From assembly GCA_043788295.1 (NCBI GenBank), contig JAYVUC010000120.1:168-64167 (forward strand): a stretch of DNA of 64,000 nucleotides, in the 5' to 3' direction. The stretch comes from Phycisphaerales bacterium. Its GTDB lineage: Bacteria > Planctomycetota > Phycisphaerae > Phycisphaerales > UBA1924. The notes under the pieces were generated by a model, which saw only the letters and a list, made by a program, of their open reading frames with translations, did not search any database and was not told where the DNA came from. Positions within the stretch are counted from its first letter, which is position 1; each line of letters opens with the position of its first letter. The position numbers were made by a program, and so were the translations under genes. Below are positions 3,401 to 63,225 of the stretch, piece after piece.

Positions 3401-4588
3401 ATGCGGAATCGTGCAGCCTGTGTTTGCGGCGGCGTTCGTGCGCTCGCGGCAACGGCTCTCTCAACCTTGGCGGGTACAGCGGTTGCCCAGCCCCAGGTTC
3501 TGACTGTGACACCAGCAGCCGACACCACCATCCTGGTCAACAACCTCGCACCTTCGTTCGACCTCAGTAACGGCAAGGGGCCGATTTTCTGCGGGCGCAC
3601 CTACACGCGGGCGGACATCGTGCAGCGCGGGCTCGTGCGCTTCGACCTCAGCCAGATCCCGCCGGGATCGACGATCACAAGTGCCGCTCTTACGCTGAGC
3701 CTCATTCGTGGCGGTTCCGGTGCGTCGAGCCCGACGGTCGAACTGCACCGCCTCCTCGCGTCGTGGGGTGAGGGTGAGTCGGAGGCCTCGGGCGGGAGCG
3801 GCGCGAACAGCCTGCCGGGCGACGCGAACTGGCACAAGCGTTTCTATCCCGACGTGAGCTGGGCGAACGAGGGCGGCGACTTTGACACTGCTGTCAGCTC
3901 ATCGCGGGGAGTCTCGCGCACGGGCGGCCCGATGACGTGGGCTTCAACCACGCGGATGGTGAGCGACGTGACGGGCTGGGTGAACAACCCCGGGACAAAC
4001 TTTGGATGGCTCATCCGCAACAACGAGTCAGCGCGCGGGACCGCGCGGCAGTTTGCGAGCCGCGAGAGCACCTCGGGAGGGACGCGGCCCTCGCTGCGCA
4101 TCGAGTACGTGCCCTGCGTGGCTGCCGTACTTTCGGGAAGCGGTTCGGCATCGATCTGCCCCAGCGGATCTGCGAGTTTCAGCACTACCGCGACTGGCAC
4201 GGGGCCGTTCGCATTCGCGTGGCGCAAGGGAACTACCGCGGTCGCGACAAGGCCCGGCGTCACGATCACAACCTCGCCCGACGGCAAGTCGTGCACACTC
4301 ACCTTCGCATCGGCGGCGTTGACCGACGCGGGGCGGGGTGCTGGCGGGTATTCGTGCGTGGTGACGAGCCCCTGCGGCTCGGTTTCGAGCACGACATGGG
4401 ACCTCGCGGTGTGTGCGGGCGATTTCAACTGCGACGGCGCGGTGGATTTTTTTGACTACGACGCCTTCGTGACATGCTTTGAGGGGCAAGGGTGCCCGGC
4501 GGGAAAGACGGCGGATTTCAACGCCGACACCGCCGTCGACTTCTTCGACTTCGACGACTTCGTGCTGGCGTTCGAGTCGCCCTGCTGA
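3401..4588 (+). CDS. Secreted protein: DNRLRE/beta-sandwich-like N-domain, Ig-like domain, C-terminal double EF-hand/dockerin-like Cys module
   Basis: Signal peptide (ALAATALSTLAGTAVAQP) and GGAGGAG RBS. LVRFDLSQIPPGSTITSAALTLSL...ASWGEGE pattern. Ig-like YSCVVTSPCG. Ends CAGDFNCDGAVDFFDYD...DFNADTAVDFFDFDDFVLAFESPC-stop. Confidence 0.75.
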   Translation: MRNRAACVCGGVRALAATALSTLAGTAVAQPQVLTVTPAADTTILVNNLAPSFDLSNGKGPIFCGRTYTRADIVQRGLVRFDLSQIPPGSTITSAALTLSLIRGGSGASSPTVELHRLLASWGEGESEASGGSGANSLPGDANWHKRFYPDVSWANEGGDFDTAVSSSRGVSRTGGPMTWASTTRMVSDVTGWVNNPGTNFGWLIRNNESARGTARQFASRESTSGGTRPSLRIEYVPCVAAVLSGSGSASICPSGSASFSTTATGTGPFAFAWRKGTTAVATRPGVTITTSPDGKSCTLTFASAALTDAGRGAGGYSCVVTSPCGSVSSTTWDLAVCAGDFNCDGAVDFFDYDAFVTCFEGQGCPAGKTADFNADTAVDFFDFDDFVLAFESPC

Positions 4589-8623: not shown

Positions 8624-9124
8624 ATGGAAACAAAGCGAATCCAAGACCGTATTTCAGCGCAGGCGGCGCTCATCAAGATGGGCACAATCGGTGTTCCTGT
8701 TCAGCTCATCGAATTTCGAATTCTCAAACGCAGCTATGAGATCAGTCCACGAATTGAGGTTCCTGGCTCGGTTCAGTTGCAGACCGGACAGGGATTTGAT
8801 GTTCTTAACGAGAATATTCAAGTCTCCACCGAATTCCGCACGGTGCTCAGTCCCAAGAATTTTGATGGCAAGGCAACGGACAATTTGTCGCTTTCAGTAT
8901 CCCAGTCGATCGGGGTCTCATACCTATTCCCCGAGACTGCCGACATGGACGCGAGGATCATCTTCGCTTTGATCGGCGGCGTGATGACGGCGTGGCCTTA
9001 TTGGAGAACCTTTGTCCATTCCTCCACCGCCGAAGCAGGAATGCATGTCCGGTTTGCGCCCTTGATACAACCGTTGGAAGCAGCGGGGATGGCGGGATTC
9101 AGAGACCAGACTGCTGCGTCGTAG
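8624..9124 (+). CDS. SecB-like chaperone candidate
   Basis: 166 aa from ATG 8624 (within ORF 8501..9124). The C-terminal segment IGGVMTAWPYWRTFVHSSTAEAGMHVRFAPLIQP parallels the SecB signature segment (E. coli ...[29 protein letters not shown], as I remember it). Size and position match SecB-like partners of HigBA modules. Confidence 0.5.
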   Translation: METKRIQDRISAQAALIKMGTIGVPVQLIEFRILKRSYEISPRIEVPGSVQLQTGQGFDVLNENIQVSTEFRTVLSPKNFDGKATDNLSLSVSQSIGVSYLFPETADMDARIIFALIGGVMTAWPYWRTFVHSSTAEAGMHVRFAPLIQPLEAAGMAGFRDQTAAS

Positions 9125-9166
9125 CGGTTCTGATCCGAATTGTTTGGATCGCTCGAACAACTTTGC

Positions 9167-10405
9167 TCAATCCTCCCCAAACTCGAACGACTGATTGAAG
9201 ATCGGCTCGGGCCTGCGGAGTGCGATGTTGACGATGAGGCCCGTCATGAGCCACGCCGAGAGCATGCTCGAGCCACCGTAGCTGACGAACGGGAGCGTGA
9301 CGCCGACGATGGGAGCGAGGCCCACATTCATGGCGATGTTGACCATCGCCTGGAAGCCCACAAACGCCGCGAGCCCGACGGCGATCAGGCGGCCGAAGGG
9401 ATCGTTGGTCGAGCCAGCGACCAGCAGCGCCCCCACAACCCACATGAGCATCAGCCCCAGCGTCGCGGCGATGCCCCAGAACCCAAAGCGATTGCCGATG
9501 ACGGCGGTGATCATGTCGTTGTGGCGTTCGGGCAGGGCGTTGAAGTGCAGAAGTGCCTTGGAATGCTCGGGTGAAACGCCCGAAATGCCGCCCGCGCCGA
9601 TCATGGTCTGCGCGGTCAGGCTCTGAAAGTTGATGTCCTTGTCGGCCGAGGAATCGCCCTGGTACTGCTTCCAGAGGCCAACGAGCCGCTGCTTTTGGTG
9701 GGGCCTGAGAAACTGGAAACAAAGCGGCGCAGCGAGCGCGGCGACAAAAACGATGATCGTGAGGTGGCGCAGCCTCGCGCCGGCCGCGACGAGCATGGCG
9801 AAAAGACTCGGGATGAAAAGCAGCGCACCGCCCAGATCGGGCTGGAGCGTGATGAGCCCGACGGGGATCATCGTCACGAGACCAATCGGCACAAGCCCCC
9901 AGAATCTGCGATGTGTCGTGCGATAGCGGAGATACCACGCGACGGCGAGCACGTAGACGACCTTGGCGAGCTCGGCGGGCTGAAGATCGGCAAAGCCGAA
10001 GTTGATCCAACCGCGCGCCCCGTTGTGCGGCTTGACGATCCACGTCGGCACGAAGGGGATGAGCATGAACACGAGCACCGCGACGGTGAGGCCACCCAGG
10101 ATCATGGTGAAATGCCCGAAGCTGCGATAGCTGGGGATGGCGATGATAATCGCCGCGAGAATGCCCGTGACCGCGTAGACCGCCTGGCGCACGACAACGC
10201 CCCCGCCGCCCATGCCCGCGCGCGCGTTGCCTGCGACCGCCTCCGCCGGAACGATCACGTCGGAAATATGGATGCAGTACATGCCCAGGAGCGTCAACGC
10301 GACCGATGCGATGACCACCAGCCAGCCCGGATTCTTCGGGCTCAGTGCGGCGAGCACGAGGCCAAGACCATTCCCGCGACCGCCGAATGCGCTGGCACGG
10401 GCCAT
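9167..10405 (-). CDS. rodA: Peptidoglycan glycosyltransferase RodA (FtsW/RodA/SpoVE family)
   Basis: 412 aa polytopic membrane protein. FVSYGGSSMLSAWL motif. Immediately downstream of PBP2. Confidence 0.9.
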   Translation of the reverse strand: MARASAFGGRGNGLGLVLAALSPKNPGWLVVIASVALTLLGMYCIHISDVIVPAEAVAGNARAGMGGGGVVVRQAVYAVTGILAAIIIAIPSYRSFGHFTMILGGLTVAVLVFMLIPFVPTWIVKPHNGARGWINFGFADLQPAELAKVVYVLAVAWYLRYRTTHRRFWGLVPIGLVTMIPVGLITLQPDLGGALLFIPSLFAMLVAAGARLRHLTIIVFVAALAAPLCFQFLRPHQKQRLVGLWKQYQGDSSADKDINFQSLTAQTMIGAGGISGVSPEHSKALLHFNALPERHNDMITAVIGNRFGFWGIAATLGLMLMWVVGALLVAGSTNDPFGRLIAVGLAAFVGFQAMVNIAMNVGLAPIVGVTLPFVSYGGSSMLSAWLMTGLIVNIALRRPEPIFNQSFEFGED

Positions 10406-12826
10406 TCAGAGATACCCCTCGTCGATCAGCGCGTGAACGATCTGATTGCAGATGGCTCCCGAGACCTTGCCCCCGCTTCCCGCGTATTCCATCATCACCG
10501 CGACGGCGAATCTGGGGCGGCGATCTTCGGCCTTGCCCACCATGAACACGTACCACGAGTGGTCGCCCTCGACGCGCTCACGCGGCGCGGGCCCGTCGGG
10601 TCCATCGCTGTCTATGAACTCAAGCCCTGCGGCTGTTCCTGTCTTGCCCCATATCCAAATTTTCGTCGGGTCTGTGTCGAAGGTCACCTCGCGGGCGCCA
10701 TTGACGACGATGTGGTGCCCCGTGCCCTGCTCGTCGTTGATGCTCCGCCCAAGGCCCGTGAGTGCCTCGATGATGACCGCAGGATCGAGGTTGAGCGGGA
10801 TCGGATCAGTGCGCGGCGCATCCCTGAGCACACGCGGGTTCATCCAAACGCCCATGCGAGCGATCGTCGCGTACGCGTTGGCCGCGTGCAGGGGCGTCCA
10901 CTCCACTGGCCCTTGCCCGATCGCCATCATGATGCCGTCCTGCGGGGTCATCTTCGCCTGCGATTGTGGGCGCCCCGCGATGCCCGCGTATTCGGTCCCG
11001 ACACCCAGATCCCATCGCTTGCCGACCCCAAAGTCGTGAAAGGCGTCGGCCACGCCCTGATACCCCATCCGCTGGCCCAATGTGTAGAAGAAAATGTTGC
11101 ACGAGACGCAGATCGCGTCCTCGGCGTGCAACGGGTGCCCGATCTGCTCGGTGTGGTTGGGAATCGGGCTCTCGCCGATCTGCCACTTCTTGTAGAGCCA
11201 ACACCGGAACGCGTTGGGCTGATTGGGGAACAGATGCCCAGTGCAGTCGATCGACTCGCCAGGCGTGTAGAAGCCGCGTTTGGCAGCCCCCACAAGCATC
11301 AGCGGCTTGGCAATCGAGCCCGGCGGATAAGGCTTGGCGATCGCCCGGTTGAGCGCGGGCCACGGACCAGCCGGGTCGAAGACCTTCGTGCCCTCGGCCA
11401 GAATCTCGCCGCGGCTGAACGTGGGCGTCGAGACCATCGCCAGCACCTCGCCCGAATCGACATCCAGCACCACCGCAGCACCCGCGAGCGGCGTGCCGAC
11501 GGGACGGAACGCGGGGTTGGGGATTCGCTGCCCGTGGCCGTCGGCAATGGATTCGGGCGATTTGTTCCAGGGCTGAACGACCGCCAGGCCGATTTCGGGC
11601 GTCATGGCGGCCTGAATCCGGGCCTGAAGCACCACGTCGATGGTCAGTTGAACATCGCGGCCCCGCATCGCCTCGACCGTGCGCGACGTGCCGGTCTCAA
11701 GATGCACGATGCGCTGACCTCGCAGCCCGCGAAGATCGGACTCCATCGACGCTTCCACGCCGCTCGAGCCCACGCGTTCCGCAAGGGCGGGATCGTAAAA
11801 GCCACGATCCGCGTCGTCCTCGCTCAGCACGCGCTCGCGGAACACGCGGTCGAGCTCGATGCGCGTTGCTCGCCGCCGGATATCCTCATCCTGCGCGTGG
11901 TCGCGGAGCCAGCCGATGAGATGGATCGCAACGCCTTCGAGCTCGACCGACGCCGATTTGCCCTCTGCTCGCAAGGGGCCTGGAAGGTGCGAGCGATCGA
12001 CCTGCACCCTCATCGTTTCCATCGGGTACACGCGATCGCCCGACGCGACCACTCGCAGGCCCGGGATCAGCTCAAGCCGCTCGACAACCGGCTCCTTGCG
12101 ATCGTTCTCGCCCACGATGACATCGACCTTGGTGCCTTCGAGGTGGTCGAGCTCGACCGCCACCGCGTCGTTCACCCGGGCGGTGAGCGTGTGGGCGACG
12201 CCCTGTTCCCAGATCGGTTCGCCGATGCGACGCTCGATCGCACGCAGTGCCGTCTCATTGAGTTGATCTCCGCGGGCGGCCGCCTCGTCCATCTCGCGGG
12301 CGCGCCGTTGCTTCACCACCGCGTCGTAGTGCTTGGAAACAAGCTCGATCACCTCGCGCCGTCGACCTTCAAAGTCGGCGGGCGAGGTCGAGACAACGCG
12401 GGCGAGCCTCGTCCACGCCGCCTGCTGGTGGGCGTCGTACGCGACCTGAAACCTGGCGATCGTCACTTCCCGCTGCGCGAGCGTCATCTCGTCCCACTGG
12501 CCCCGGTACGCCTTTCGAGCAGCGACGCGTGCCTGCTCCCGGGGCCATTTCCCTTCAATCACGTCGAACAGGATCGCGAGGTCGAAACTCGGCCTGTCTT
12601 CGGCGAGCACGCGATCCTTGCGATCGAGGATTCTGCCGCGAACCGTGGGCGTCCAGTGCCTTGCGATGAGCCGCGATTCGGCACGTCCCAGCAGCTCGTC
12701 ATGTCTCAGCACGCCCAGCCGAAACGCCTGCCAACCGATCGCACCCATGCCCGCGGACGCAACGCCAGCCAGCAGGAGCAGCCTGCGGTGGAACATGCTG
12801 GGGAACATCCTGCGGAACAAGGGCAT
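10406..12826 (-). CDS. mrdA: Penicillin-binding protein 2 (elongation transpeptidase)
   Basis: 806 aa. SxxK (GSIAKP), SxN (VSCNIFFY), KTG (WGKTGTA). Contiguous with rodA. Confidence 0.9.
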   Translation of the reverse strand: MPLFRRMFPSMFHRRLLLLAGVASAGMGAIGWQAFRLGVLRHDELLGRAESRLIARHWTPTVRGRILDRKDRVLAEDRPSFDLAILFDVIEGKWPREQARVAARKAYRGQWDEMTLAQREVTIARFQVAYDAHQQAAWTRLARVVSTSPADFEGRRREVIELVSKHYDAVVKQRRAREMDEAAARGDQLNETALRAIERRIGEPIWEQGVAHTLTARVNDAVAVELDHLEGTKVDVIVGENDRKEPVVERLELIPGLRVVASGDRVYPMETMRVQVDRSHLPGPLRAEGKSASVELEGVAIHLIGWLRDHAQDEDIRRRATRIELDRVFRERVLSEDDADRGFYDPALAERVGSSGVEASMESDLRGLRGQRIVHLETGTSRTVEAMRGRDVQLTIDVVLQARIQAAMTPEIGLAVVQPWNKSPESIADGHGQRIPNPAFRPVGTPLAGAAVVLDVDSGEVLAMVSTPTFSRGEILAEGTKVFDPAGPWPALNRAIAKPYPPGSIAKPLMLVGAAKRGFYTPGESIDCTGHLFPNQPNAFRCWLYKKWQIGESPIPNHTEQIGHPLHAEDAICVSCNIFFYTLGQRMGYQGVADAFHDFGVGKRWDLGVGTEYAGIAGRPQSQAKMTPQDGIMMAIGQGPVEWTPLHAANAYATIARMGVWMNPRVLRDAPRTDPIPLNLDPAVIIEALTGLGRSINDEQGTGHHIVVNGAREVTFDTDPTKIWIWGKTGTAAGLEFIDSDGPDGPAPRERVEGDHSWYVFMVGKAEDRRPRFAVAVMMEYAGSGGKVSGAICNQIVHALIDEGYL

Positions 12827-12857
12827 GCGTTTCTCGGGCGAATGGAACCGGTCGGGC

Positions 12858-14024
12858 TCAAACGCCCATCAGAATCTCTATCGTCCGCTGATCGAGCTTC
12901 TCATAAGGCAGCGGTCTTGCGGCAAGGCTCGCCCGATCAAAGTTCATCGCCAAGAGTGTTTCGGCCCGGCTCCGCTTGTACTCCGTGGTCAGCGCGTCCA
13001 CGTCCTTGCCCGATCGGTGGATCTGCTTCAGGATCGACTTCACCGTTGCATCGGCGTTCCACTGATCCGCCTTGTCGCGGAGAATGAGATACGTCCGCAT
13101 GCACCCCCGAGCAAACTCGATCACGTCCGCCCGGTCGGACGTGCGGTACGCGTGGGCGTCGAAATGCTTGAAACCCGCGTACTTTGCGTCTTCCAGGAGC
13201 TTCACGAGAAAGAACGCGTGCTTGAGGTTCGCCGAGCCAAAGCGGAAGTCCTGGTCGTAGCGCCCGAACTCCTGGTCGTTCAGGTCGATGTGGAAAAGCT
13301 TGCCGGCACTCAGCGCCTGGGCGATGGCGTGCGTGAAGTTCAGCCCCGCCATGTGCTCGTGGGCGACCTCGGGATTCACCCCCACCATGTCCGGATGCTT
13401 CAGGGTGTTGATGAACGCCAGGTAGTGCCCCGTGGTGGGGAAAAACATGTGCCCACGCGGCTCGTTGGGCTTGGCCTCCATCGCAAACTTGTACTCAAAG
13501 CCCCTGTCCCGCGAGTATTCGCACAGGAAGTTCATGGCGGATCGGAATCGCTCCTCGGCCTGCCCCGGATCCTTGGTCGCGTCGCTCTCGCACCCCTCGC
13601 GCCCGCCCCAGAAGACGTAGATATGAGCCCCGAACTCCGCCCCAAGCTCCATCGCCCGCATTGTCTTCTGGATCGCGTACGCCCGAATCTCCGCGTCGTT
13701 GCTGGTGAACGCCCCGTCCTTGAACACCTTGTCGCCAAAGAGGTTTGTCGTCGCCATCGCAACCTTGATCTTGGCTTTCTTGAGAGCCTTGGCGAAGTCG
13801 CCCTTGATCTGCTCGCTCTCGGCGGGTGTTGCGTCGATGGGAACCAGGTCGTTGTCATGGAAATTGACGCCGTGAACCCCCCCAACCTCGCCCAGCAACT
13901 CAACGATTTCCGCAGGGGACATCGGAGCCCTGGTGGGCTCCCCAAAGGGGTCACGGCCCGTGTTTCCGACGGTCCAGAGGCCGAATGTGAACTTGTCCTT
14001 GGCGGTGGGTGTGAAATCGGGCAT
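12858..14024 (-). CDS. xylA: Xylose isomerase (class I, short type)
   Basis: ORF 12858..14090 trimmed to the ATG at 14024 (MPDFTPTAKDKFTFGLWTVG...), giving 388 aa. Motifs FTFGLWTVG and FAMEAKPNEPRGH. Confidence 0.9.
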   Translation of the reverse strand: MPDFTPTAKDKFTFGLWTVGNTGRDPFGEPTRAPMSPAEIVELLGEVGGVHGVNFHDNDLVPIDATPAESEQIKGDFAKALKKAKIKVAMATTNLFGDKVFKDGAFTSNDAEIRAYAIQKTMRAMELGAEFGAHIYVFWGGREGCESDATKDPGQAEERFRSAMNFLCEYSRDRGFEYKFAMEAKPNEPRGHMFFPTTGHYLAFINTLKHPDMVGVNPEVAHEHMAGLNFTHAIAQALSAGKLFHIDLNDQEFGRYDQDFRFGSANLKHAFFLVKLLEDAKYAGFKHFDAHAYRTSDRADVIEFARGCMRTYLILRDKADQWNADATVKSILKQIHRSGKDVDALTTEYKRSRAETLLAMNFDRASLAARPLPYEKLDQRTIEILMGV

Positions 14025-14119
14025 GTTGGGTTTGTGTCCGGTCTGGGGCTTGCTTGGAATTGCGGCGTGGACGACAGGGAACCCTTGCATCGGGCGACGG
14101 GTTCTAGTAGGCTACGCCG

Positions 14120-15904
14120 ATGAAGACTCTACCGCAGGTCCGGTCATGGCGTTTGTGGTCGTCGGTCGCGATGGGCGTGATCGCCGGGATGGGAGCCAGC
14201 CAGGCCCGAGCCCAATCGGACAACTGTGCGAATGCACAACCGCTGCCGATGGGTTCGGTGGCAGTCAGCACGACCGGGTTCACCCTGGACGGCGCGAGTG
14301 CCTGCAACGCCCTCTCACCCGATGGCTGGTACTCGGTGACCAGCCCAACCGACGCGGTGCTCGTGGTCGAGGCCTGCCAGAGGATTGCTTCACCCACACT
14401 TTCCCTGCACACCGGCTGTCCGGGCACGGTCGCCAATATGCTCATTTGCAGCTACAAGGATTCGTACGCGTGCAACGGCATGTCAAGGATTGAAATGTCG
14501 GTGGCGGCAGGGCACACGTACTACCTTCGGATCGCCGGCGGCGGGAACATCGTTCTCAAGACATTTTTGACGGCTCCCTGGATCGTGGGCGGCCAAGGGC
14601 CCGACGTGATCTCGGGAGACATTCCCGAGATGGCCCGGTACCAAAATGCAAACGGCTTTGCCGCCATGGCGCTCGGGTCTGCCGCGTGCAACCCCGGAAC
14701 GGCCAACGTCGTCTGGACCAACCAGAACAACAGCAACCAGCACCCCGTGATCTCCACGAGCATGTACCGCCTCAAGGACGGGATCATGGAGCAGATGGGC
14801 TACGCGTGGATGAAGCACGGCTGGGCGTCGGGAACCGAAACCTGGTGCGACTACTGCCCCGACGGCGGGGTGCATCCGTATCTGATCCCGGGCTGCACCG
14901 ACAGCTACGACGTGCCACAGAACGGCACGCAGAGCATCCTTGGCCCGAGGTCTGAGATCAATCCGACGACGGGCTTCTTCCCATATCCGCCGTCAAACCC
15001 GGCAAACATCGTGGACACAACGACACGGCGCATCCGCGTCCCGCAGGCGTCGATCGACCCGGCACTGAATCCCGGCGCGAAATACTTCGCAGAGCTGCAC
15101 TATGTTGCCGCCGACGACGCCGCCGCCGGCAACGCGATGAACAACGCCTCGTACCGCAAGATCTCGTTTGCGTCGGCCTCCGCCGCCCCTGCCTTCGCCG
15201 GTGAGACGCAGCGCACCAGGCCCGCGATCCTCGCCTGGGCCGACAACGACCCCACCGTCACCGCCGTCGCCGTCGACACGACCGAGGGCGGCTACAACAC
15301 GCGGTATTGGGTGGCGAGCAAGGCATGGGAGACAAGTCCCGGACATTGGCGGTACGCCTACGGCATCTTCAACCTCAACTCCAACCGGGCGGCCGCGGGG
15401 CTCGTGCTTCCCAAGTTCAACGGCGTGCAGCTCACGGGCCCGTCCTGGCTCACGCCCCCCGCCCATCCGGGCGAGGTGTATTCGACGACTCCCTGGGCTG
15501 TCACGAACAGCGCGCACACCTTCGGTTGGGAGTGCACGCAGACATTTGCGCAGAATCCAAATGCCAACGCCCTGCACTGGGGCATCATGTACACGATGGT
15601 GATCAACTCCACCTCACCGCCCACACAGGGGCTCGCCAAGCTCAAGCTCTTCGCGCCGCCCACCTTCGGCGACCCCAGCGAGCCCGCCGAACTCTCGGTG
15701 TTGCTCCCCGTCCCGTCGGGGGCCCGCTGCCCCGCTGATTTCAACGCCGACGGAGCGGTCGACTTCTTCGACTACGACGAGTTCATCGAGTGCTTCACGG
15801 GACTCTCTTGCCCGCCAGGCGCGACACCGGACTTCAACCATGACACTGCGGTGGACTTCTTCGACTACGACGACTTTGTGGTCGCGTTTGAGACGCCCTG
15901 CTGA
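14120..15904 (+). CDS. Secreted protein with N-terminal Cys-rich module and C-terminal double EF-hand/dockerin-like Cys module
   Basis: Signal peptide (AGMGASQARAQ). N-terminal SDNCANAQPL...YYLRIAGGG module. Ends CPADFNADGAVDFFDYDEFIECF...DFNHDTAVDFFDYDDFVVAFETPC-stop. Confidence 0.75.
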   Translation: MKTLPQVRSWRLWSSVAMGVIAGMGASQARAQSDNCANAQPLPMGSVAVSTTGFTLDGASACNALSPDGWYSVTSPTDAVLVVEACQRIASPTLSLHTGCPGTVANMLICSYKDSYACNGMSRIEMSVAAGHTYYLRIAGGGNIVLKTFLTAPWIVGGQGPDVISGDIPEMARYQNANGFAAMALGSAACNPGTANVVWTNQNNSNQHPVISTSMYRLKDGIMEQMGYAWMKHGWASGTETWCDYCPDGGVHPYLIPGCTDSYDVPQNGTQSILGPRSEINPTTGFFPYPPSNPANIVDTTTRRIRVPQASIDPALNPGAKYFAELHYVAADDAAAGNAMNNASYRKISFASASAAPAFAGETQRTRPAILAWADNDPTVTAVAVDTTEGGYNTRYWVASKAWETSPGHWRYAYGIFNLNSNRAAAGLVLPKFNGVQLTGPSWLTPPAHPGEVYSTTPWAVTNSAHTFGWECTQTFAQNPNANALHWGIMYTMVINSTSPPTQGLAKLKLFAPPTFGDPSEPAELSVLLPVPSGARCPADFNADGAVDFFDYDEFIECFTGLSCPPGATPDFNHDTAVDFFDYDDFVVAFETPC

Positions 15905-16063
15905 GTTGGCTCCCGTAGCCTTGCCCGCACATTCGATGTCTGTGACGCCCACGACGACTGTAACGCCGATCGGTGGGTTGTTTTTGCTCGGGGTCGGTCG
16001 GCAGCCCCTTGGATCGGTGTGCGTGCGTCGATGATCTGAGGCCACCGGACCACACGTGCCGGG

Positions 16064-16984
16064 ATGGCAGAGGGGTTCCCCATGCCCGCACATCGTTCAA
16101 GAACCGACAAGTGGCGCGAGAGTCTGCACCAGATCTACGAGCGCAACGGCGGGATCGAGATATCACCCACGCGTGCCGCGGGCGGCGACGCCGATTCAGG
16201 AGCGGTCGATCTCGTCTGGCGTGTCCGCATCCTGGGGCTCAACCACAGCGAGATCTTTGTCGAGCAGCCCAGCGCCCTGAGCGAACGCATCCCCATCGCC
16301 GATGGCGCCATTCTCACCGTGGGACTCACCGTCGGGCAGAATCGCTGGATGTTCTCGACCAAAGTCGTCGGCCAGATGAAAGTGCCAACGCGGTTCGGGC
16401 CGCCCATCGCGGGGCTCGTGCTGGCGATGCCCGAGCACGTCGAACGCTGTGCCCGCCGAAACTTCATGCGCGTCTCGACCGCGAGCGTCAACCTGCCCGA
16501 GGTGGAATGCCACCTGCTGCTTGACACATCAACAGCGATCCGCGCCGAGCGTGAGAACCGCGAGGCGATCGAAGAGGCCGAGGCACGGCTCCTGACCACC
16601 CCGCACGGACAGACCGCCACGACCGCCGGGGTTGGCGTTGCCGCCAAGATCGGCCCGACACCCCTCCCGCTCGTAGGCCCCATGTTCCGCACGCGCCTCT
16701 TGAACGTGGGCGGAGGCGGTGCGGGCCTGCTTTGCAGCAAGGGCGAGACATCGAGCGTGGACAGCTCCCGCGCGTACTGGCTCCGCGTCAACCTCACGCC
16801 CGAGGTGCCTGTGCCCCTCGGCATGTGCGCCCGCATCGTCCACACCCACCTCGACAGCGAGCAGAACACCTACTGCGGCGTCGCGTTTGATTTCAGCCAC
16901 GCCCCCGAGCACCGCACGTTCATCGCGCAGCAAATCGCCGCCTTCACCCGCAGGGTGCAGGAAAGGGCGGCGAAAGCGGCGTGA
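16064..16984 (+). CDS. PilZ-domain (c-di-GMP-binding type) protein
   Basis: RxxxR (RCARRNFMRV) followed by NVGGGGAGLLC (D/NxSxxG-like). Start uncertain (16064 or ATG 16082). Confidence 0.65.
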   Translation: MAEGFPMPAHRSRTDKWRESLHQIYERNGGIEISPTRAAGGDADSGAVDLVWRVRILGLNHSEIFVEQPSALSERIPIADGAILTVGLTVGQNRWMFSTKVVGQMKVPTRFGPPIAGLVLAMPEHVERCARRNFMRVSTASVNLPEVECHLLLDTSTAIRAERENREAIEEAEARLLTTPHGQTATTAGVGVAAKIGPTPLPLVGPMFRTRLLNVGGGGAGLLCSKGETSSVDSSRAYWLRVNLTPEVPVPLGMCARIVHTHLDSEQNTYCGVAFDFSHAPEHRTFIAQQIAAFTRRVQERAAKAA

Positions 16985-17014
16985 GAGCGAAATTGTCCTG
17001 GACTACAGGGCTAC

Positions 17015-18631
17015 TCAGGCGTCGCGTCCGCCCATGAGCTTCTTCAACCAGGGCCCGGCGAGGATGATCACGAGTCCCGCCGAGCACGAGGTAATGACAA
17101 ACAGGAAGAAGTAGTCGGCTTGCGTGTTTGCGGTCGAGTTACCCGCGAGGTGCCAGGGGAGCGTCTTCTCGCCGTCGACGATCGGCTTGACCATCGCGGC
17201 CAGCTTGCCCGCGCCCAGGTTCGCAATGAAGCTCGAGATAAACCAGACCCCCATGAGCAGCGAGGTTGACTCTGTCGGCGCAGCCTTGGTCACGTACGAA
17301 AGCCCGGTCGGGCTCAGCACGATCTCGCCCATGGTGTGGACAAAATACGTGCCGACAACCAGCCAGAGGCTTGCTTTGACCGGGTCCTTGGCCTGAATCG
17401 CCGCGGCCACCATGAACAGATAGCCCAGCCCGACGAGCATCAGGCCGAACGCGATTTTGTAAGGCTGGGCCGGGTTTTTCTTCTTTCGTGACAACCAGGC
17501 CCACATGACTCCTGTGATCGGCGCAAAGGCAACGATCAGCCAGGGATTCACCGACTGGAACCACGTCGTGGGGATCACGAACGATCCCACCTGACGCTCG
17601 GTCAGGCGGTCGGTGAAAAGGTTGATCGAAGAGCCGGCCTGCTCGAACGAGAGCCAGAACACGGCATTGAAGAGCATGAAGATGAAAATTGATGCGACCG
17701 GTCCGCGATCCTCCGGCCTTTGCTTGATCGTGAACCAGCTCGCCCACAGAATCGCGGCTCCCGCGATGCTGTAATAGACCCGTGGATCCGAAACGAACTC
17801 ATCGACCTTTTTCAGATACCCCAGGTGGAAGGCGATCGCCACGAGCGCCGCGAGCACGATCCCCGTCGGAATCAGGACCGGAGCGTTGCGAGCCTTCTCC
17901 TCATCCTTGGGAAGCCCGATGCCAGCGAGAAGTTTCGGCCTCAGGAAGACATACAACGCCAGGCCCAGAATCATGCCTACAGCGGCCGTCGCGAAGCCCC
18001 AGTGCCACCCTACCCGCTCGCCGAGCGTTCCGACCGCCAGAACCTGCAAGGCCGAGCCAAGGTTGATACCCATGTAGAAGATGCCGAACGCACTCTCTCG
18101 ACGCGGGTCGCCATGCGCGTAGAGCTGCCCCACCATGACCGACACGGAGGGCTTGAAATGCCCCGTCCCGATCACGATCAACGCGAGCCCGAACACAAAG
18201 AGCGTCATCGCCCACTGGGTGTGCTCGATCGCCCCCAGCCCTGACAGGCCCAGCACGATGTGCCCCAGCGCAATCAGAAGACCTCCGACGATCATCGACC
18301 GATGCGTTCCGATCAGCTTGTCGGCGATCATCCCGCCGATGATGGGCGTGAGATACGCCAGCCCCGTGTACCACCCGTAGGCGTTGTTTGCGTCGGGATC
18401 GGTCCAGCCGGGGCCCGGATTGAACCCTTCGGGAGAACCGGCGAGCGGGTTTCGCATGCCGCCCGTCGGGCTGGTGAGGTAGAGCACCAGAATCCCGCGC
18501 ATCCCGTAGTAGCTGAATCGCTCCCACATCTCCACGAGGAAGAGCAGGAACAGCCCGGCCGGGTGCCCGAGCAGCGTGGCTCTGCTCTGGAGTGCGGAGG
18601 GGGGAGCGAACGACGAGGATGGAATCGCCAT
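17015..18631 (-). CDS. Proton-dependent oligopeptide transporter (POT/PTR2 family)
   Basis: POT signature EMWERFSYYGMRGILVLYL. Polytopic. Start set to ATG 18631 (MAIPSS...). Confidence 0.85.
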   Translation of the reverse strand: MAIPSSSFAPPSALQSRATLLGHPAGLFLLFLVEMWERFSYYGMRGILVLYLTSPTGGMRNPLAGSPEGFNPGPGWTDPDANNAYGWYTGLAYLTPIIGGMIADKLIGTHRSMIVGGLLIALGHIVLGLSGLGAIEHTQWAMTLFVFGLALIVIGTGHFKPSVSVMVGQLYAHGDPRRESAFGIFYMGINLGSALQVLAVGTLGERVGWHWGFATAAVGMILGLALYVFLRPKLLAGIGLPKDEEKARNAPVLIPTGIVLAALVAIAFHLGYLKKVDEFVSDPRVYYSIAGAAILWASWFTIKQRPEDRGPVASIFIFMLFNAVFWLSFEQAGSSINLFTDRLTERQVGSFVIPTTWFQSVNPWLIVAFAPITGVMWAWLSRKKKNPAQPYKIAFGLMLVGLGYLFMVAAAIQAKDPVKASLWLVVGTYFVHTMGEIVLSPTGLSYVTKAAPTESTSLLMGVWFISSFIANLGAGKLAAMVKPIVDGEKTLPWHLAGNSTANTQADYFFLFVITSCSAGLVIILAGPWLKKLMGGRDA

Positions 18632-47194: not shown

Positions 47195-47211
47195 CCCGGA
47201 ACTGTTCCGGG
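47195..47211. promoter_or_regulatory. Perfect palindrome CCCGGAAC-T-GTTCCGGG in a divergent promoter region
   Basis: 8-bp arms, 33 nt upstream of ATG 47244. Same GGAAC/GTTCC half-sites as the 21-bp array at 48516..48698. Confidence 0.35.
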
Positions 47212-47243: not shown

Positions 47244-48410
47244 ATGGAGCGTCACACACACGCCACACTTGCCCGTCTTGCATTCGCGGCACTCGCGCTC
47301 ACTGCCGCCGTCGGGCTTCTCGTCGCCATGGGGCCGCTGAACCCGCCTGCGGGGCCGGTCACATCAACCTACAAGACACTCACCGAGGTCGAGCCTCGCA
47401 TCGCCATCAACTTGACCAACACGCCCGGCGATGCCGACAGCCTCTTCAAGATCACCCAGCCCGGGTCGTACTACCTCGCGGGCAACATTACGGGCGTAGC
47501 AGGCAAACACGGGATCGAGATCGTCGCCAGCGGCGTGACCCTCGACCTTAAGGGCTTTGACTTGTCGGGCGTGCCCGCGATGGGCGCATTTGACGGCGTC
47601 AGTGTCACCGTGACCACGCTTAGAGATATCGCGGTGGCCAACGGCTCGGTCCGCAACTGGGGCGACGAGGGAATCGACCTTGGCACCTCTCTGGCAGCTA
47701 ACTGCCGCGTGGAAGGTGTAAACGCCAGTGGCAACACGGGCAACGGCATAAGCGTCGGGAGCGGCACCACGGTCTCAAACTGCTCAGCATCTTCAAACTC
47801 ATCCAGCGGAATCAGCACCGGCAACGGCTGTTCGATCACGAACTGCGCGATAAACCTCAACACCGTGAACGGCATCAATGCGAGCAGCACCTGCAGCATT
47901 ACCAACTGCTCAGCATTTGATAACACTGGTCACGGCATCGGCATCTCCGACGGCAGCACGGTCTCAAACTGTGCGGCATCCTTCAATACACTCAGCGGCA
48001 TAGGCCCGCGCACTAACGTCCTCCTTACCGGCAGCACGATTGCCGACTGCGCCGTCCGTGGCAACACCGGTGACGGAATTCTGTTTGCTTCGAATTGCAT
48101 CGTACGTGGCAACACCTGCGCTGGGAACGGCAACGGCGGCGACGGCGCGGGAATCCACGCCACCGGCGCCGACAACCGCATCGAGGGCAACAACTGCTCC
48201 GGCGGCGACCGCGGCATCGACGTGGGCGCCGCCGGCAACATCATCATCAAGAACACCTGCTCGGGCGCCACTCTCAACTGGACCATCGCCGCCAACAACG
48301 TCTGCGGCCCCATCCTCGACCGCACCGCCCCCGCCAGCGCGGCCATCAGCGGCAACAGCGCCCCCAGCAGCCTCGCCACCACCGATCCCCATGCCAACTT
48401 CTCTTACTAA
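47244..48410 (+). CDS. Secreted right-handed parallel beta-helix repeat protein (paralog 1)
   Basis: Start ATG 47244 (GGGAG RBS, signal peptide). About 22-aa repeats of type GNGISVGSGTTVSNCSASSNSSSGI. Ends TTDPHANFSY. Confidence 0.75.
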   Translation: MERHTHATLARLAFAALALTAAVGLLVAMGPLNPPAGPVTSTYKTLTEVEPRIAINLTNTPGDADSLFKITQPGSYYLAGNITGVAGKHGIEIVASGVTLDLKGFDLSGVPAMGAFDGVSVTVTTLRDIAVANGSVRNWGDEGIDLGTSLAANCRVEGVNASGNTGNGISVGSGTTVSNCSASSNSSSGISTGNGCSITNCAINLNTVNGINASSTCSITNCSAFDNTGHGIGISDGSTVSNCAASFNTLSGIGPRTNVLLTGSTIADCAVRGNTGDGILFASNCIVRGNTCAGNGNGGDGAGIHATGADNRIEGNNCSGGDRGIDVGAAGNIIIKNTCSGATLNWTIAANNVCGPILDRTAPASAAISGNSAPSSLATTDPHANFSY

Positions 48411-48515
48411 ACCTCGCCCATCCGCCGGCCCGACGCGGGGCGCGCTGACGGGGCCTCACGGCCCGGCCGCGCGGCTCCAGGCATCGGCCACGGGCTGGAA
48501 GAGCCGCGTCACACC

Positions 48516-48698
48516 GCGTTCCCGGCGGCCGGGAATGAGTTCCAGAACGCCGGGAACACATCCCAGGCCAACCGGAACGCATTCCCAATCGTTGGGAATG
48601 TGCTCCCAGTCACCGGGAATGTGTTCCAGACCACCGGGAACACGTTCCAGAGGTCCGGGAACACGTTCCCGACGAACCGGAATGCGATCCGGCACGAC
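48516..48698. repeat. About 8.7 contiguous 21-bp imperfect-palindrome repeats (RYRTTCC-N7-CCGGGAAY)
   Basis: Units start at 48516, 48537, 48558, 48579, 48600, 48621, 48642, 48663 and 48684 (partial). There are no spacers. Intergenic, between the two beta-helix paralogs. Confidence 0.9.
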
Positions 48699-48770
48699 TA
48701 AAATCAAGCGAATGGTGCGCCTGTGTCCACGAACACCGTCTCCAAACCCCAGTAGCAGAGAGAATCAACC

Positions 48771-60839: not shown

Positions 60840-61436
60840 ATGGCAGCCCAACCTACTCCCACTTCGCCCGCTCCACGCCCGACCGACCCCGCGTTCGTCG
60901 AACTGGTGTACGAGCAGCTTCGGAGGCAAGCCCAGCTCGCGATGGCGATGGAGAATCCGGGGCACACGCTGCAGGCCACCGCGCTCGTGCACGAGGTGTT
61001 TCTCAGGTTGGCGCAAGGCCGAAACGTGCCTTGGGCGAACAAGGCCCACTTCTACGCCGCTGCTGCCGAATCCATGAGCCGTCTGCTCATCGATCACGCG
61101 CGAGCCAAGCAGGCTCAGAAACGCGGCGGCGGGAACGGCGCGGGTCCTGTGGACGGTGCTTCGTGCGCGACCGATCTCATCGCAAACGTGGCGGATTTGG
61201 CGACCGCGGAAAATCCCGAGACCATCCTGAGGCTTGCAGCCGGTATTTCTCGCTTGGAGGCTGAGAACCCCGAGGCCGCCGCCCTGGTCCGCCTCCGCTT
61301 CTACGCGGGGCTGTCCCTCGACCAGACGGCGGAAGCTCTTGGGCTCTCGCCCGCCACGGTGGACCGGCGGTGGGCCTTTGCGCGGGCTTGGCTACACCGC
61401 CATCTGTCAGAGCCCCCGGCGCAAGCCGGGGAGTGA
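60840..61436 (+). CDS. ECF-type sigma-70 family factor (kinase-associated type)
   Basis: Region 2 [12 protein letters not shown]. Region 4 [29 protein letters not shown] Ser/Thr kinase gene follows 28 nt downstream. Confidence 0.85.
61407..61430. repeat. 24-nt element CAGAGCCCCCGGCGCAAGCCGGGG, copy 2
   Basis: Identical to 46529..46552. Encodes the last residues (SEPPAQAG) of the ECF sigma ORF. Confidence 0.9.
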
Positions 61437-61464
61437 GCGTCTTGTGCGGGAATCGGATGAAGCC

Positions 61465-63225
61465 ATGAAATCCAACATTCAAGCCATCTTTGAGTCCGTC
61501 ATTGCCCTGCCCCAAACCGAAAGACCCGCAGCGGTCAAGAGGCTGTGCGCGAACGACGCGGCGGCGCAGACCGAAGTGAACGCCCTGCTCAAATCACACG
61601 ATGAAGCCGGCGCATTCCTGGGCAGCCCGACCGCCGACCTCGCCACCGCCGACCGCATCACCGAAACCCCAGGCCAGCGAATCGGCCCCTACAAGCTCCT
61701 CCAACTCATCGGCGAAGGCGGCTTCGGCTCAGTCTTCCTCGCTGAGCAGACCGAGCCCGTCCGCCGCCGCGTCGCTCTCAAGATCATCAAACTCGGCATG
61801 GACACGCGACAGGTCATCGCACGCTTCGAGGCCGAGCGTCAGGCCCTCGCCCTCATGGACCACCCGCACATCGCCAAAGTCCTCGACGCCGGCGCCACCG
61901 ACAGCGGCCGTCCCTACTTCGTGATGGAGTACGTCGTCGGTGACTCCATCACGGCCTTCGCGGGCGCCCATGCCCTCACGATCCGCCAGCGCCTCGAACT
62001 CTTCGCCCAGGTCTGCTCGGCCGTCCAGCACGCCCACACCAAGGGCGTCATCCACCGCGACATCAAGCCCGCCAACGTGCTCGTCAGCATGACCGACGGC
62101 AAGCCTTTCGCCAAAGTCATCGACTTCGGCATCGCCAAGGCAACCGCCCAGCCTCTCACCGAGAAAACCCTCTTCACCGAACACCGCCAGCTCATCGGCA
62201 CGCCCGAGTACATGAGCCCCGAGCAGGCCCAGGGCTCCGCCGACATCGACACGCGAACAGACGTCTACGCCCTGGGCGTCCTGCTCTACGAACTGCTGAC
62301 CGGCGCGACGCCCTTCGACGCAAAACGCCTGCGATCGGCTGCATGGGGCGAAATGCAGCGCATCATCCGCGAAGAAGAGCCCCCCACGCCAAGCATGCGC
62401 GTCACTGCCTTTTCAGAGCCCGTAGCGCAAGCACGGGTCCGCCTCGGACAACCCGACGCGTCGAACGACCCGCAGGCCCCACGCAACGAAAGCCAGACCT
62501 CACTCCCGCAGGTCGCGCCAGCGACGAACACAACCGGACACCCCGCGCCCACCCTCGCTCGCGCGTCGGGCTCTGACCGAGCCGCCCTCAGCCGTCAGAT
62601 CAAGGGCGAGCTCGACTGGATCGTGATGAAAGCCCTCGACAAAGACCGCTCGCGCCGCTACGAAAGCCCCAGCCAACTCGCCGCCGACGTCACTCGCCAC
62701 CTCGCCGGCGAACCCGTCGTGGCGGCCCCGCCAAGCCGTGCGTATCGCGTGCGGAAGTTTGTGAGAAAGCACAAGGGACCGGTGGTGGCGACAACAGCCG
62801 TCGCGGCAGCACTGCTGATGGGGATCGCGGGCATAGGTTTGGGCCTCTATCGCGCCAAGCAGGCCAACGCCATACTCCAACGACACCATGATCTTTCGGT
62901 CGCCTCGGCCGAAGAGATTATGCTGACGTTCAGCACGTACCTCAAGCTCGATGACCATTTCTTCAGCGACGACAAGTCTTTCGATGTCAGGGAAGTGCGC
63001 AGCAGCGATGGGACGCTCCGAGGCCGTATCGAAGCAAAGGTGACCAAGGATGCGACGGGCAAGCTTCGTGTGATTGCGCATGAATACGACGCCCAGGGGC
63101 GCAGAGCTGACAACGGACTCCTCATCGAAGAACTCGGCAAGATGACCATTGCATTCTTCAAAGCGTACGAACGTGACATCGACGAGCTCAAGGCCAAACT
63201 TCATGCGGCAGAGTTGCCCAGGTGA
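61465..63225 (+). CDS. Ser/Thr protein kinase with one TM helix and extracytoplasmic C-terminal domain
   Basis: ATG 61465. [42 protein letters not shown] helix [22 protein letters not shown]. Confidence 0.9.

Follow-up and report, generated by a model that had tools for sequence, protein, structure and literature searches.

The array between two beta-helix genes

The window analysed here is a 64-kb stretch (64,000 nt) of contig JAYVUC010000120.1 from a Phycisphaerales bacterium, and the element in question is an array of palindromic 21-bp units that separates two genes for secreted right-handed beta-helix proteins (paralogs 1 and 2, 52% identical to each other; Table 1). Eight cores of the form GGAAY-NN-RTTCC follow one another in phase, with GGAAYNNRTTCC starting at positions 48532, 48553, 48574, 48595, 48616, 48637, 48658, and 48679, i.e., with a step of exactly 21 bp; five of the eight match GGAAYNNRTTCC exactly and three carry one mismatch. 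A lone right half-site (GTTCC, 48518-48522) lies 5' of the first core and a decayed unit (AAAATCAAGCGA, 48700-48711) 3' of the last one, and the same stretch can alternatively be read as nine RTTCC-N9-GGAAY palindromes starting at 48516, with 2-bp linkers between them and a degenerate ninth member. A preliminary description, made from the sequence alone, had reported exact 21-bp phasing without spacers, conserved RTTCC...GGAAY half-sites, and palindromes both within units and across their junctions; all of this was confirmed, and on the window array both palindromic readings are equally valid.

Table 1 Coordinates of the array, of the features around it, and of X227 gene copies next to related arrays (X227 is described below; locus handles precede the colon)
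Feature	Position	Strand	Remarks
Perfect 17-bp palindrome CCCGGAAC-T-GTTCCGGG	47195..47211	.	33 bp upstream of the paralog-1 ATG
Paralog 1, beta-helix protein	47244..48410	+	Probable true start ATG 47244, not 47025; TAA stop ~100 bp before the array
Array of 21-bp units	48511..48698	.	Direct sequence reading, Tandem Repeats Finder (TRF), motif counts
TAAAAT, -10-like hexamer	48699..48704	+	Directly after the last unit; 66 nt before the paralog-2 ATG
Paralog 2, secreted right-handed beta-helix protein, 419 aa	48771..50030	+	ATG 72 bp after the array
Coding candidate: G-N-x-F-Q/P-x-x heptads		+	Frame c, in frame with paralog 1 beyond its TAA
Coding candidate: 51-aa open reading frame (ORF)	48664-48509	minus
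Coding candidate: 83-aa E-x-V/I-P heptad ORF	48707-48456	minus
Extracytoplasmic function (ECF) sigma gene, Planctomycete-type	60840-61436		PF07638
X227 copy	L118:3531-4214
X227 copy	L124:6001-6684
X227 copy	L145:8001-8696
X227 copy	L147:8001-8684

The motif is strongly enriched at this place, as the five exact GGAAYNNRTTCC matches (0.21 expected by chance in the window) all lie within the array, which also holds six of the seven TTCC-N9-GGAA matches of the window (1.06 expected). TRF returned a period of 21, the lag-21 self-match reached 0.69 at 48494-48739, and no other intergenic array of such kind is present in the window, where this is the single array. The units, with a conserved part of 12 bp and a variable part of 9 bp, fall outside the dimensions of clustered regularly interspaced short palindromic repeats (CRISPR) arrays, i.e., 23-47-bp repeats with 26-72-bp unique spacers. 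Departures from the consensus are very unevenly distributed: 3 of 64 positions mismatch in the GGAA/TTCC half-sites compared with 40 of 104 at the remaining unit positions (Fisher P = 3.6e-7), and the mean pairwise identity between units, 0.62 overall, is 0.91 at the half-sites and 0.44 elsewhere. As conservation is confined to the half-sites, selection acts on these only, and the units are old yet selectively maintained. The observed array is a real, non-random, non-coding element.

The same figures bear on the view that the array is a neutral or contingency minisatellite, either a drifting 21-bp tandem duplication or a slippage switch that alters promoter spacing for paralog 2, as the preliminary description had also offered. 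The head-to-tail units without spacers, the 86% identity of the adjacent units 6 and 7, the many near-identical 21-bp arrays found elsewhere at contig ends, which resemble expanding repeats, and the position upstream of a gene for a secreted, surface-type protein would all suit such a repeat. However, units that average only 62% identity and have decayed solely outside the half-sites indicate purifying selection and make a poor substrate for slippage, while gain or loss of whole units upstream of the hexamer would leave the -35/-10 spacing unchanged, so that we regard this explanation as quite unlikely.

The position of the array ahead of paralog 2 and the TAAAAT hexamer at its end were found as first described, and the last unit together with the hexamer forms GGAAT-N15-TAAAAT; the hexamer may itself be a decayed GGAAT half-site. 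The palindrome upstream of paralog 1 has the half-sites of the array placed 1 bp closer together. It is the only GGAAYNRTTCC match in the window, where 0.23 are expected and 20% of shuffled sequences contain at least one, and a link with the array is no more than suggested; the palindrome could be a lone operator or a hairpin. The wider neighbourhood consists of housekeeping genes (GroES, YidC, aroA, glutathione peroxidase (GPx), aldehyde dehydrogenase, DeoC aldolase, and an M50 site-2 (RseP-type) protease), and a globin-like gene is also present among the neighbours. The ECF sigma gene is followed by an overlapping 663-aa ORF (the two spanning window positions 60840-63225), which possibly encodes a partner anti-sigma factor or a kinase.

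Homologues of paralog 2 number at least 2100, mostly from Phycisphaerae/Planctomycetota, and the beta-helix family has more than 2100 members in Phycisphaerae; the protein cluster of paralog 2 itself has a single member.

Related arrays in other genomes and viruses

A genome scan for two cores 21 bp apart, using one genome per species, returned at least 119 loci. Around 45 of the matches listed belong to an unrelated, genome-wide GGAATTAATTCC repeat with 22-34-bp periods in one Thiotrichaceae metagenome-assembled genome (MAG), which dominated the scan and was set aside as a separate repeat family. In this MAG (JAABRD01; L001, L004, L008, L009, L028, L072, L079, and others) modules of GGAATTAATTCC and GTTGGAGTAC recur with periods of 22, 28, 29, or 34 bp at dozens of loci, the arrays flip orientation midway, and they occur in Thiomargarita as well.

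Many of the remaining matches listed are true 21-bp arrays of 5-12 units, and about 20 diverged arrays keep a strict 21-bp period without indels over their 5-12 units. Among the matches listed, strictly 21-bp arrays similar to that of the window come from Planctomycetota, Verrucomicrobiota, Thermoanaerobaculia, Bacteroidota, and Spirochaetota, and others are present in phage contigs. Diverged arrays, in which the core is kept and the spacer is variable, are concentrated in Phycisphaerales (L040, L046, L051, L095, L118), Verrucomicrobiota (L025, L026, L038, L061, L063, L087, L089, with at least six arrays from one MAG), and Thermoanaerobaculia (L044, L059, L085), and other genomes of the Planctomycetes-Verrucomicrobia-Chlamydiae (PVC) group carry from two to at least six arrays each. 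In viral contigs, the motif pair was present at 13 loci, compared with 4 and 0 loci for two control palindromes of matched composition. Wherever the flanks were callable from the ORF tables, the distance from the array end to the start codon was 60-200 bp (64 bp in L060, 66 in L031, 105 in L046, 106 in L118, 112 and 131 in L063, 121 in L038, and 144 in L044).

The paralogous Verrucomicrobiota arrays L026 and L038 are conserved in their half-sites only, as in the window. Next to these two arrays, which belong to one MAG, lies a stretch of ~486 bp (L026:5285-5784 and L038:4776-5275) that is 80% identical between them; the similarity extends to all reading frames, indicating conserved non-coding DNA, and a GTCCTATAGGAC-like palindrome is contained in it. 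When 141 units from 17 arrays were pooled in one matrix, position 17, the centre of the spacer, was G or C in 94% of the units, position 14 was almost never T, and position 20 was rarely A, while the mirror symmetry of this matrix is partly forced by the orientation-free pooling and only the G/C centre is independent of orientation. Dyad axes thus fall on the centre of the core and on the centre of the spacer, one every 10.5 bp.

Arrays ahead of X227 genes and the exchange of cores

BLAST clustering found no single neighbour gene common to all array loci. A profile search yielded X227, a conserved gene of ~227 aa, in a subset of the loci, where it lies directly downstream of the array in Phycisphaerales, Culturomica, Treponema, and IMG/VR phage contigs. 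Its 397 homologues, mostly from Phycisphaerales, are all annotated as 'hypothetical', and it matched no Pfam or PHROG family; an AlphaFold model (pLDDT 85) consists of a helical hairpin and an FN3 sandwich, with matches to FN3 only. At every X227 locus examined, a 21-bp array precedes the gene and keeps one register with respect to its ATG, though the core is not always the same: GGARY..RYTCC is used in L118, L122, L124, L125, and L145, GTCGC..GCGAC stands at the same unit positions in L147 and L123, and the array of a distant homologue (L149) is built on TTGTACAA. L122 and L147 have X227 proteins with 90% identity and have kept the gene-proximal spacers (GACTGAAGT, RRGCCGATG), but every core differs between them. 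A fixed period combined with interchangeable palindromes that change in concert is the signature of binding sites co-evolving with a protein, as is the case for iterons, centromeres, and immunity operators, and the concerted swap is hard to reconcile with coding or neutral repeats. X227 was considered as the binder itself; with a model matching FN3 only and 90% identity between arrays of different specificity, it is an unlikely candidate.

X227 resides in true phage genomes, where its neighbours include a protease-capsid fusion, a tape-measure protein, terminase, Sak4, SSB, a helicase, and a sigma factor, as well as in integrative elements, beside an integrase and a DUF3987 gene. A 219-aa paralog follows 2-3 kb downstream, and the cargo between the two is variable (AAA_21 plus DUF3226, an NmeDI-type or type II restriction enzyme, or a radical-SAM enzyme), so that a pair of X227 genes bracketing restriction- or abortive infection (Abi)-like cargo suggests a possible defence hotspot. 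Several observations concern the gene and its immediate surroundings. X227 homologues have lengths of 227, 234, 241, and 248 aa, i.e., steps of 7 aa (21 bp), and the copy at L095:6626-7381 carries two separate 7-residue insertions, which suggests that 21-bp duplications occur within the X227 coding sequence too. In Treponema, the array at L060:6790-6910 ends in GGAAT-N15-TAAAAT, as does the window array at 48679-48704, and is followed by a GGCAAAATTTTTGCC hairpin, an AAAGGAG ribosome-binding site, and then X227. In L124 and L122 (4756-5874 in both) a phage helicase ORF loses its similarity after ~298 residues and continues into the array, suggesting that the array-X227 cassette was inserted into the 3' part of a helicase gene or replaced it.

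The comparison of these arrays also bears on whether the repeats are, or recently were, protein-coding. Several frames are open across the window array, 21 bp equal seven codons, and plus-strand frame c, open from the paralog-1 stop to the TAA at 48699, has a GC content at third codon positions (GC3) of 0.84 by our own count, within the 0.79-0.89 of real genes; a sub-threshold match to PF22116 (DUF6944; E = 1e-3, 18.8 bits with a cut-off of 32) points in the same direction. Nevertheless, this frame lacks a start codon, open frames are normal at 64% GC, the GC3-like pattern coincides with the DNA-level base preferences of the spacer in the pooled matrix, and no Pfam match exceeded the threshold. 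Among orthologous arrays the stops lie in different frames, and the differences between L124 and L125 are spread as 7, 6, and 6 over the codon phases (a hand count without a statistical test), with no period-3 bias. The only frame that is open in nearly all arrays examined is minus-strand frame b (with one edge stop, in L095), which would need the rare codons GAA, GTT, and ATT in genomes with a GC3 of 0.8-0.9, and with the exchange of cores each unit would read R-V-R in place of N-x-F, which is implausible for a protein. Heptad-repeat coding was dropped for the array family on the grounds of the frame-inconsistent stops, the absent period-3 bias, and the concerted core swap, and for the window array we consider a coding origin very unlikely.

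A further explanation would place the function in RNA or single-stranded DNA, as a transcribed multi-hairpin leader or spacer RNA, or as single-stranded hairpins, with a 5-bp stem and a 9-nt loop, acting on mRNA stability, processing, translation, or an RNA-binding protein. It could account for the fact that the arrays hold whole RTTCC-N9-GGAAY units (the right half-site comes first and the left one last) and that orthologous arrays change their 'stems' together and keep the proximal 'loops'; X227 arrays moreover lie between co-oriented genes, precede a GC hairpin and a ribosome-binding site, and are probably transcribed, and the array region folds far better than shuffled sequences (z = -6.5). 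The predicted fold, however, pairs distant units, as any palindromic array would, and a 5-bp stem with a 9-nt loop is marginal. The preliminary description had seen covariation in units 1 and 4, and these do have complementary inner arms, but over the whole window array 12 of 32 arm positions are complementary where 12.0 are expected, and over 18 arrays spacer-arm complementarity is 181 against 181.9 expected. Deviations in the half-sites are not compensated in either pairing scheme (across the spacer z = +0.6, within the junction core z = -1.4), and Rfam 15 at the gathering threshold gave no match in the window or at the arrays of 18 array loci. The use of one stem sequence for all units of an array argues for sequence recognition and not for mere pairing, and an invariant 21-nt period across unrelated cores is naturally explained only on B-DNA. 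By the tests applied, the array does not behave as a structured RNA, and we judge a role as RNA or hairpin, such as the multi-hairpin leader proposed at first, unlikely.

The GGAAC of the cores had also been likened to the -35 core of ECF promoters. GGAAC is the textbook ECF -35 core, and an ECF promoter combines it, over a 16-17-nt spacer, with a -10 element of the CGT type. The ECF sigma gene of the window proved to be real, and one X227 phage contig also encodes a sigma factor, as a tandem array of ECF-sigma promoters would lead one to hope; but the gene lies 12 kb from the array, GGAAC is separated from the following CGTT by 1 or 22 nt, half of the units have GGAAT instead, the motif is palindromic, and the sister arrays with GTCGC or TTGTACAA cores have the same architecture without any GGAAC. 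This reading of the array appears to us the least probable of all.

Another explanation concerns a possible kinship with mobile replicons. Three GGAACCAGTTCC sites at 21-bp intervals were found in each of four high-GC phage contigs, located inside a replication-initiator gene (phrog_1408) in L136, a short way upstream of a DnaB-like helicase in L128, and alongside inverted DnaA boxes in L131 and L132. In the latter two (~4030-4200 and ~3958-4130, respectively), GGGGGGAAC-NN-GTTCCCC repeats adjoin the inverted DnaA boxes TTATCCACA / TGTGGACAA, and the region resembles the replication origin of a phage or plasmid. Iterons are therefore probably represented among the sites of this class. The window array might be an orphan or transplanted site of the iteron or centromere type, once bound by the replication initiator or partition adaptor of a phage or plasmid and now stranded in the chromosome, where it would have no local function or would titrate the protein of a mobile element. 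Besides the three-unit arrays at origin positions, the presence of X227-linked arrays beside a helicase (L124, L122) or beside an integrase and a DUF3987 replicase-like gene (L145) is in line with this, and the concerted core swapping recalls incompatibility or immunity groups. In addition, the 38 bp that follow the window array are ~50% identical, without gaps, to the tail of the L118 array (by hand count), with CAAGCG and GAACAC at the same offsets. On the other side, the window contains no rep, par, integrase, or phage gene and the neighbours of the array are housekeeping genes; no DnaA box occurs within 5 kb of the array and there is no AT-rich unwinding stretch beyond CTAAAATCAA. An initiator, an unwinding element, and DnaA boxes are all absent at the window array, such features being seen only at the three-unit phage arrays; no par operon (NTPase plus adaptor) was found near the window array or in those array loci whose neighbours were scanned against Pfam or PHROGs. 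Several genomes have many arrays, as in the Verrucomicrobiota MAG mentioned above, and X227 arrays are not confined to the vicinity of replication genes, as some lie behind a capsid gene or adjacent to a terminase gene. On balance, an origin as a stranded replicon site seems improbable for the window array.

A proposed phased operator array and its known counterparts

Among the roles that the preliminary description had offered, the best match is that of phased operator sites for a dimeric regulator, given the half-site conservation, the constant 21-bp period, and the concerted change of cores. Dyad-symmetric conserved half-sites and integral helical phasing, two of the features by which operators of this class are recognized, are both present here. 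We therefore propose, with moderate confidence, that the array, in phase with the helix, recruits a dimeric DNA-binding protein of defined sequence specificity, which forms a cooperative filament on it, and thereby gates transcription of paralog 2. The proposal draws on selection at the half-sites, phasing at 21 bp throughout the family, the switching of specificity, the position of the array, the enrichment of the motif, and the precedent of RogA described below, from which we infer the role of the array in this window; binding by a protein, the formation of dimers and filaments, cooperativity, and the sign of regulation are all predicted in the same way.

In molecular terms, the array would act as double-stranded DNA with approximately nine palindromic sites two helical turns apart, and all sites, together with both kinds of dyads spaced by 10.5 bp, would face one side of the helix. 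A symmetric dimer could occupy each site, and neighbouring dimers on the same face could polymerise cooperatively along the array. The first half-site of the window array is a right one and the last a left one, as in the X227-linked arrays, and these ends suggest RTTCC-N9-GGAAY as the unit site. The gene for the binder would lie at another site in the genome or on a resident mobile element. The filament would cover the place where a -35 region of the TAAAAT hexamer is expected, and since the array both occupies this place and separates the two paralogs, its occupancy would most simply repress or silence paralog 2 and would also block read-through from paralog 1.

A number of results weigh against this proposal. 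Although TAAAAT abuts the array 66 nt before the start codon, no convincing -35 was found for it and a consensus promoter scan made no call there. Within ~10 kb of the array, the genes scanned include no DNA-binding gene. The closest relative of paralog 2 (79% identity) belongs to a seven-gene tandem beta-helix cluster with 72-bp spacers and no motif (L120), and the intergenic array is likewise absent from the remaining metagenomic relatives recovered with usable flanks; the array is therefore not conserved ahead of the beta-helix gene family and is not an inherited feature of it. The wider motif search, while it did recover true 21-bp arrays in other phyla and phages, showed that the chromosomal ones adjoin functionally unrelated genes (ROK, DNA polymerase III delta', topoisomerase I, a sigma-54 activator, CstA, and a BspA-type leucine-rich repeat (LRR) protein), a pattern closer to a dispersed element than to a regulon. 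Some of the near-identical arrays in Bacteroidota, Treponema, Geomesophilobacter, and Roseiflexaceae may be ordinary minisatellites in which the motif happens to occur. Furthermore, the proposal does not account for the replacement of every core while the spacers persist, and the X227 arrays, lying between co-oriented genes in phage operons, would be transcribed there, so that a role at the RNA level is possible for them.

With regard to the L120 cluster itself (8729-18376), the ~70-bp spacers between its seven beta-helix paralogs each end in a GAAGGAAC-type ribosome-binding site, and an apparent eighth beta-helix copy, not called as a gene, follows after 18376.

If the operator reading is true, the window array would account for the independent control of one of the two tandem beta-helix paralogs. 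Very little is known of how genes are regulated in Planctomycetes and Verrucomicrobia, and a recognisable cis-architecture with specificity-switched variants offers a handle on the protein that reads it. The X227 arrays, with their in-register core replacement and bracketed cargo, suggest that phages and integrative elements of Phycisphaerales possess a new module for regulation, replication, or partition. A still wider proposal, which we advance only tentatively and consider doubtful, is that an undescribed and widespread class of cis-elements (in Planctomycetota, Verrucomicrobiota, Acidobacteriota, Bacteroidota, and their phages), made up of interchangeable palindromes phased at 21 bp, co-evolves in its specificity with filament-forming binders and heads a cassette composed of the array, a first X227 gene (X227a), defence-like cargo, and a second X227 gene (X227b), the chromosomal copies of which would place host surface-protein genes under the regulator of a mobile element or phage.

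The preliminary description knew of no element that matches the array, and this stood insofar as Rfam gave no match and literature searches for the motif found no matching published element beyond RogA; at the level of the motif, however, RogA is a precedent. RogA is a LexA/cI-like repressor of gene transfer agent (GTA) activators in Caulobacter crescentus that binds to a promoter region containing two GGAA-N4-TTCC inverted repeats, and its homologues have been reported only in alphaproteobacteria (PMC9632790). Its operator corresponds to the junction reading of the window array, but has two sites in place of a phased array of eight, and we take it as a motif-level lead and not as homology; no RogA-like gene came to light here, though no search aimed at one was made. 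Phased arrays of palindromic protein-binding sites are thus known as a kind, whereas the class described here, with its breadth, its switching of specificity, and its link to X227, seems to be undescribed in the sources searched.

Among the closest counterparts in architecture are the centromeres of partition systems, such as parC of pSK41 (4 × 20 bp) and of R1 (10 × 11 bp), bound by ParR, and sopC of the F plasmid (12 × 43 bp, each with a 7-2-7 inverted repeat), bound by SopB. Like the array, they consist of contiguous head-to-tail dyad repeats in 4-12 helically phased copies; they nucleate a cooperative filament or superhelix just upstream of a gene whose promoter is repressed, and they vary in specificity, a likeness that for the window array extends to predicted binding. 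They differ in the adjacent parA/parM/parR-type genes, none of which stands beside the window array with its chromosomal housekeeping surroundings, and in that several genomes hold many arrays. Iterons include the four palindromic 19-bp repeats of the lambda origin inside gene O and the 17-22-bp repeats of theta plasmids, placed ~22 bp apart. They share with the arrays the spacing of two helical turns and, in lambda, the palindromic form, and the three-unit GGAACCAGTTCC phage arrays lie at an initiator gene, at dnaB, or at DnaA boxes; unlike them, the window array lacks an initiator, an AT-rich element, and a nearby DnaA box, it has 8-9 units compared with 3-5, and X227 arrays are not consistently near replication genes.

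Repetitive extragenic palindromes (REP) and the bacterial interspersed mosaic elements (BIME) formed by them are 20-40-bp hairpins in alternating orientation with a GTAG/CGTC tag. The comparison with these elements draws in part on PMC3733652. The arrays resemble them as intergenic palindromic clusters, which the other genomes examined hold in several copies each, beside unrelated genes, but the window units are 21 bp long, in strict phase and in one orientation, with no GTAG/CGTC tag and no hairpin covariation.

Among regulators, BvgA at fha and ptx and DevR/DosR at its 'Dev boxes' bind as dimers to consecutive sites ~21-22 bp apart on one face of the helix, down to the -35 region, and the 'stoperators' of mycobacteriophage L5 are repeated intergenic repressor sites that block elongation between genes. 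In these systems the regulators are known and the sites are either 2-4 in phase or scattered, single, and asymmetric, whereas the window array belongs with those of 8-12 contiguous palindromes.

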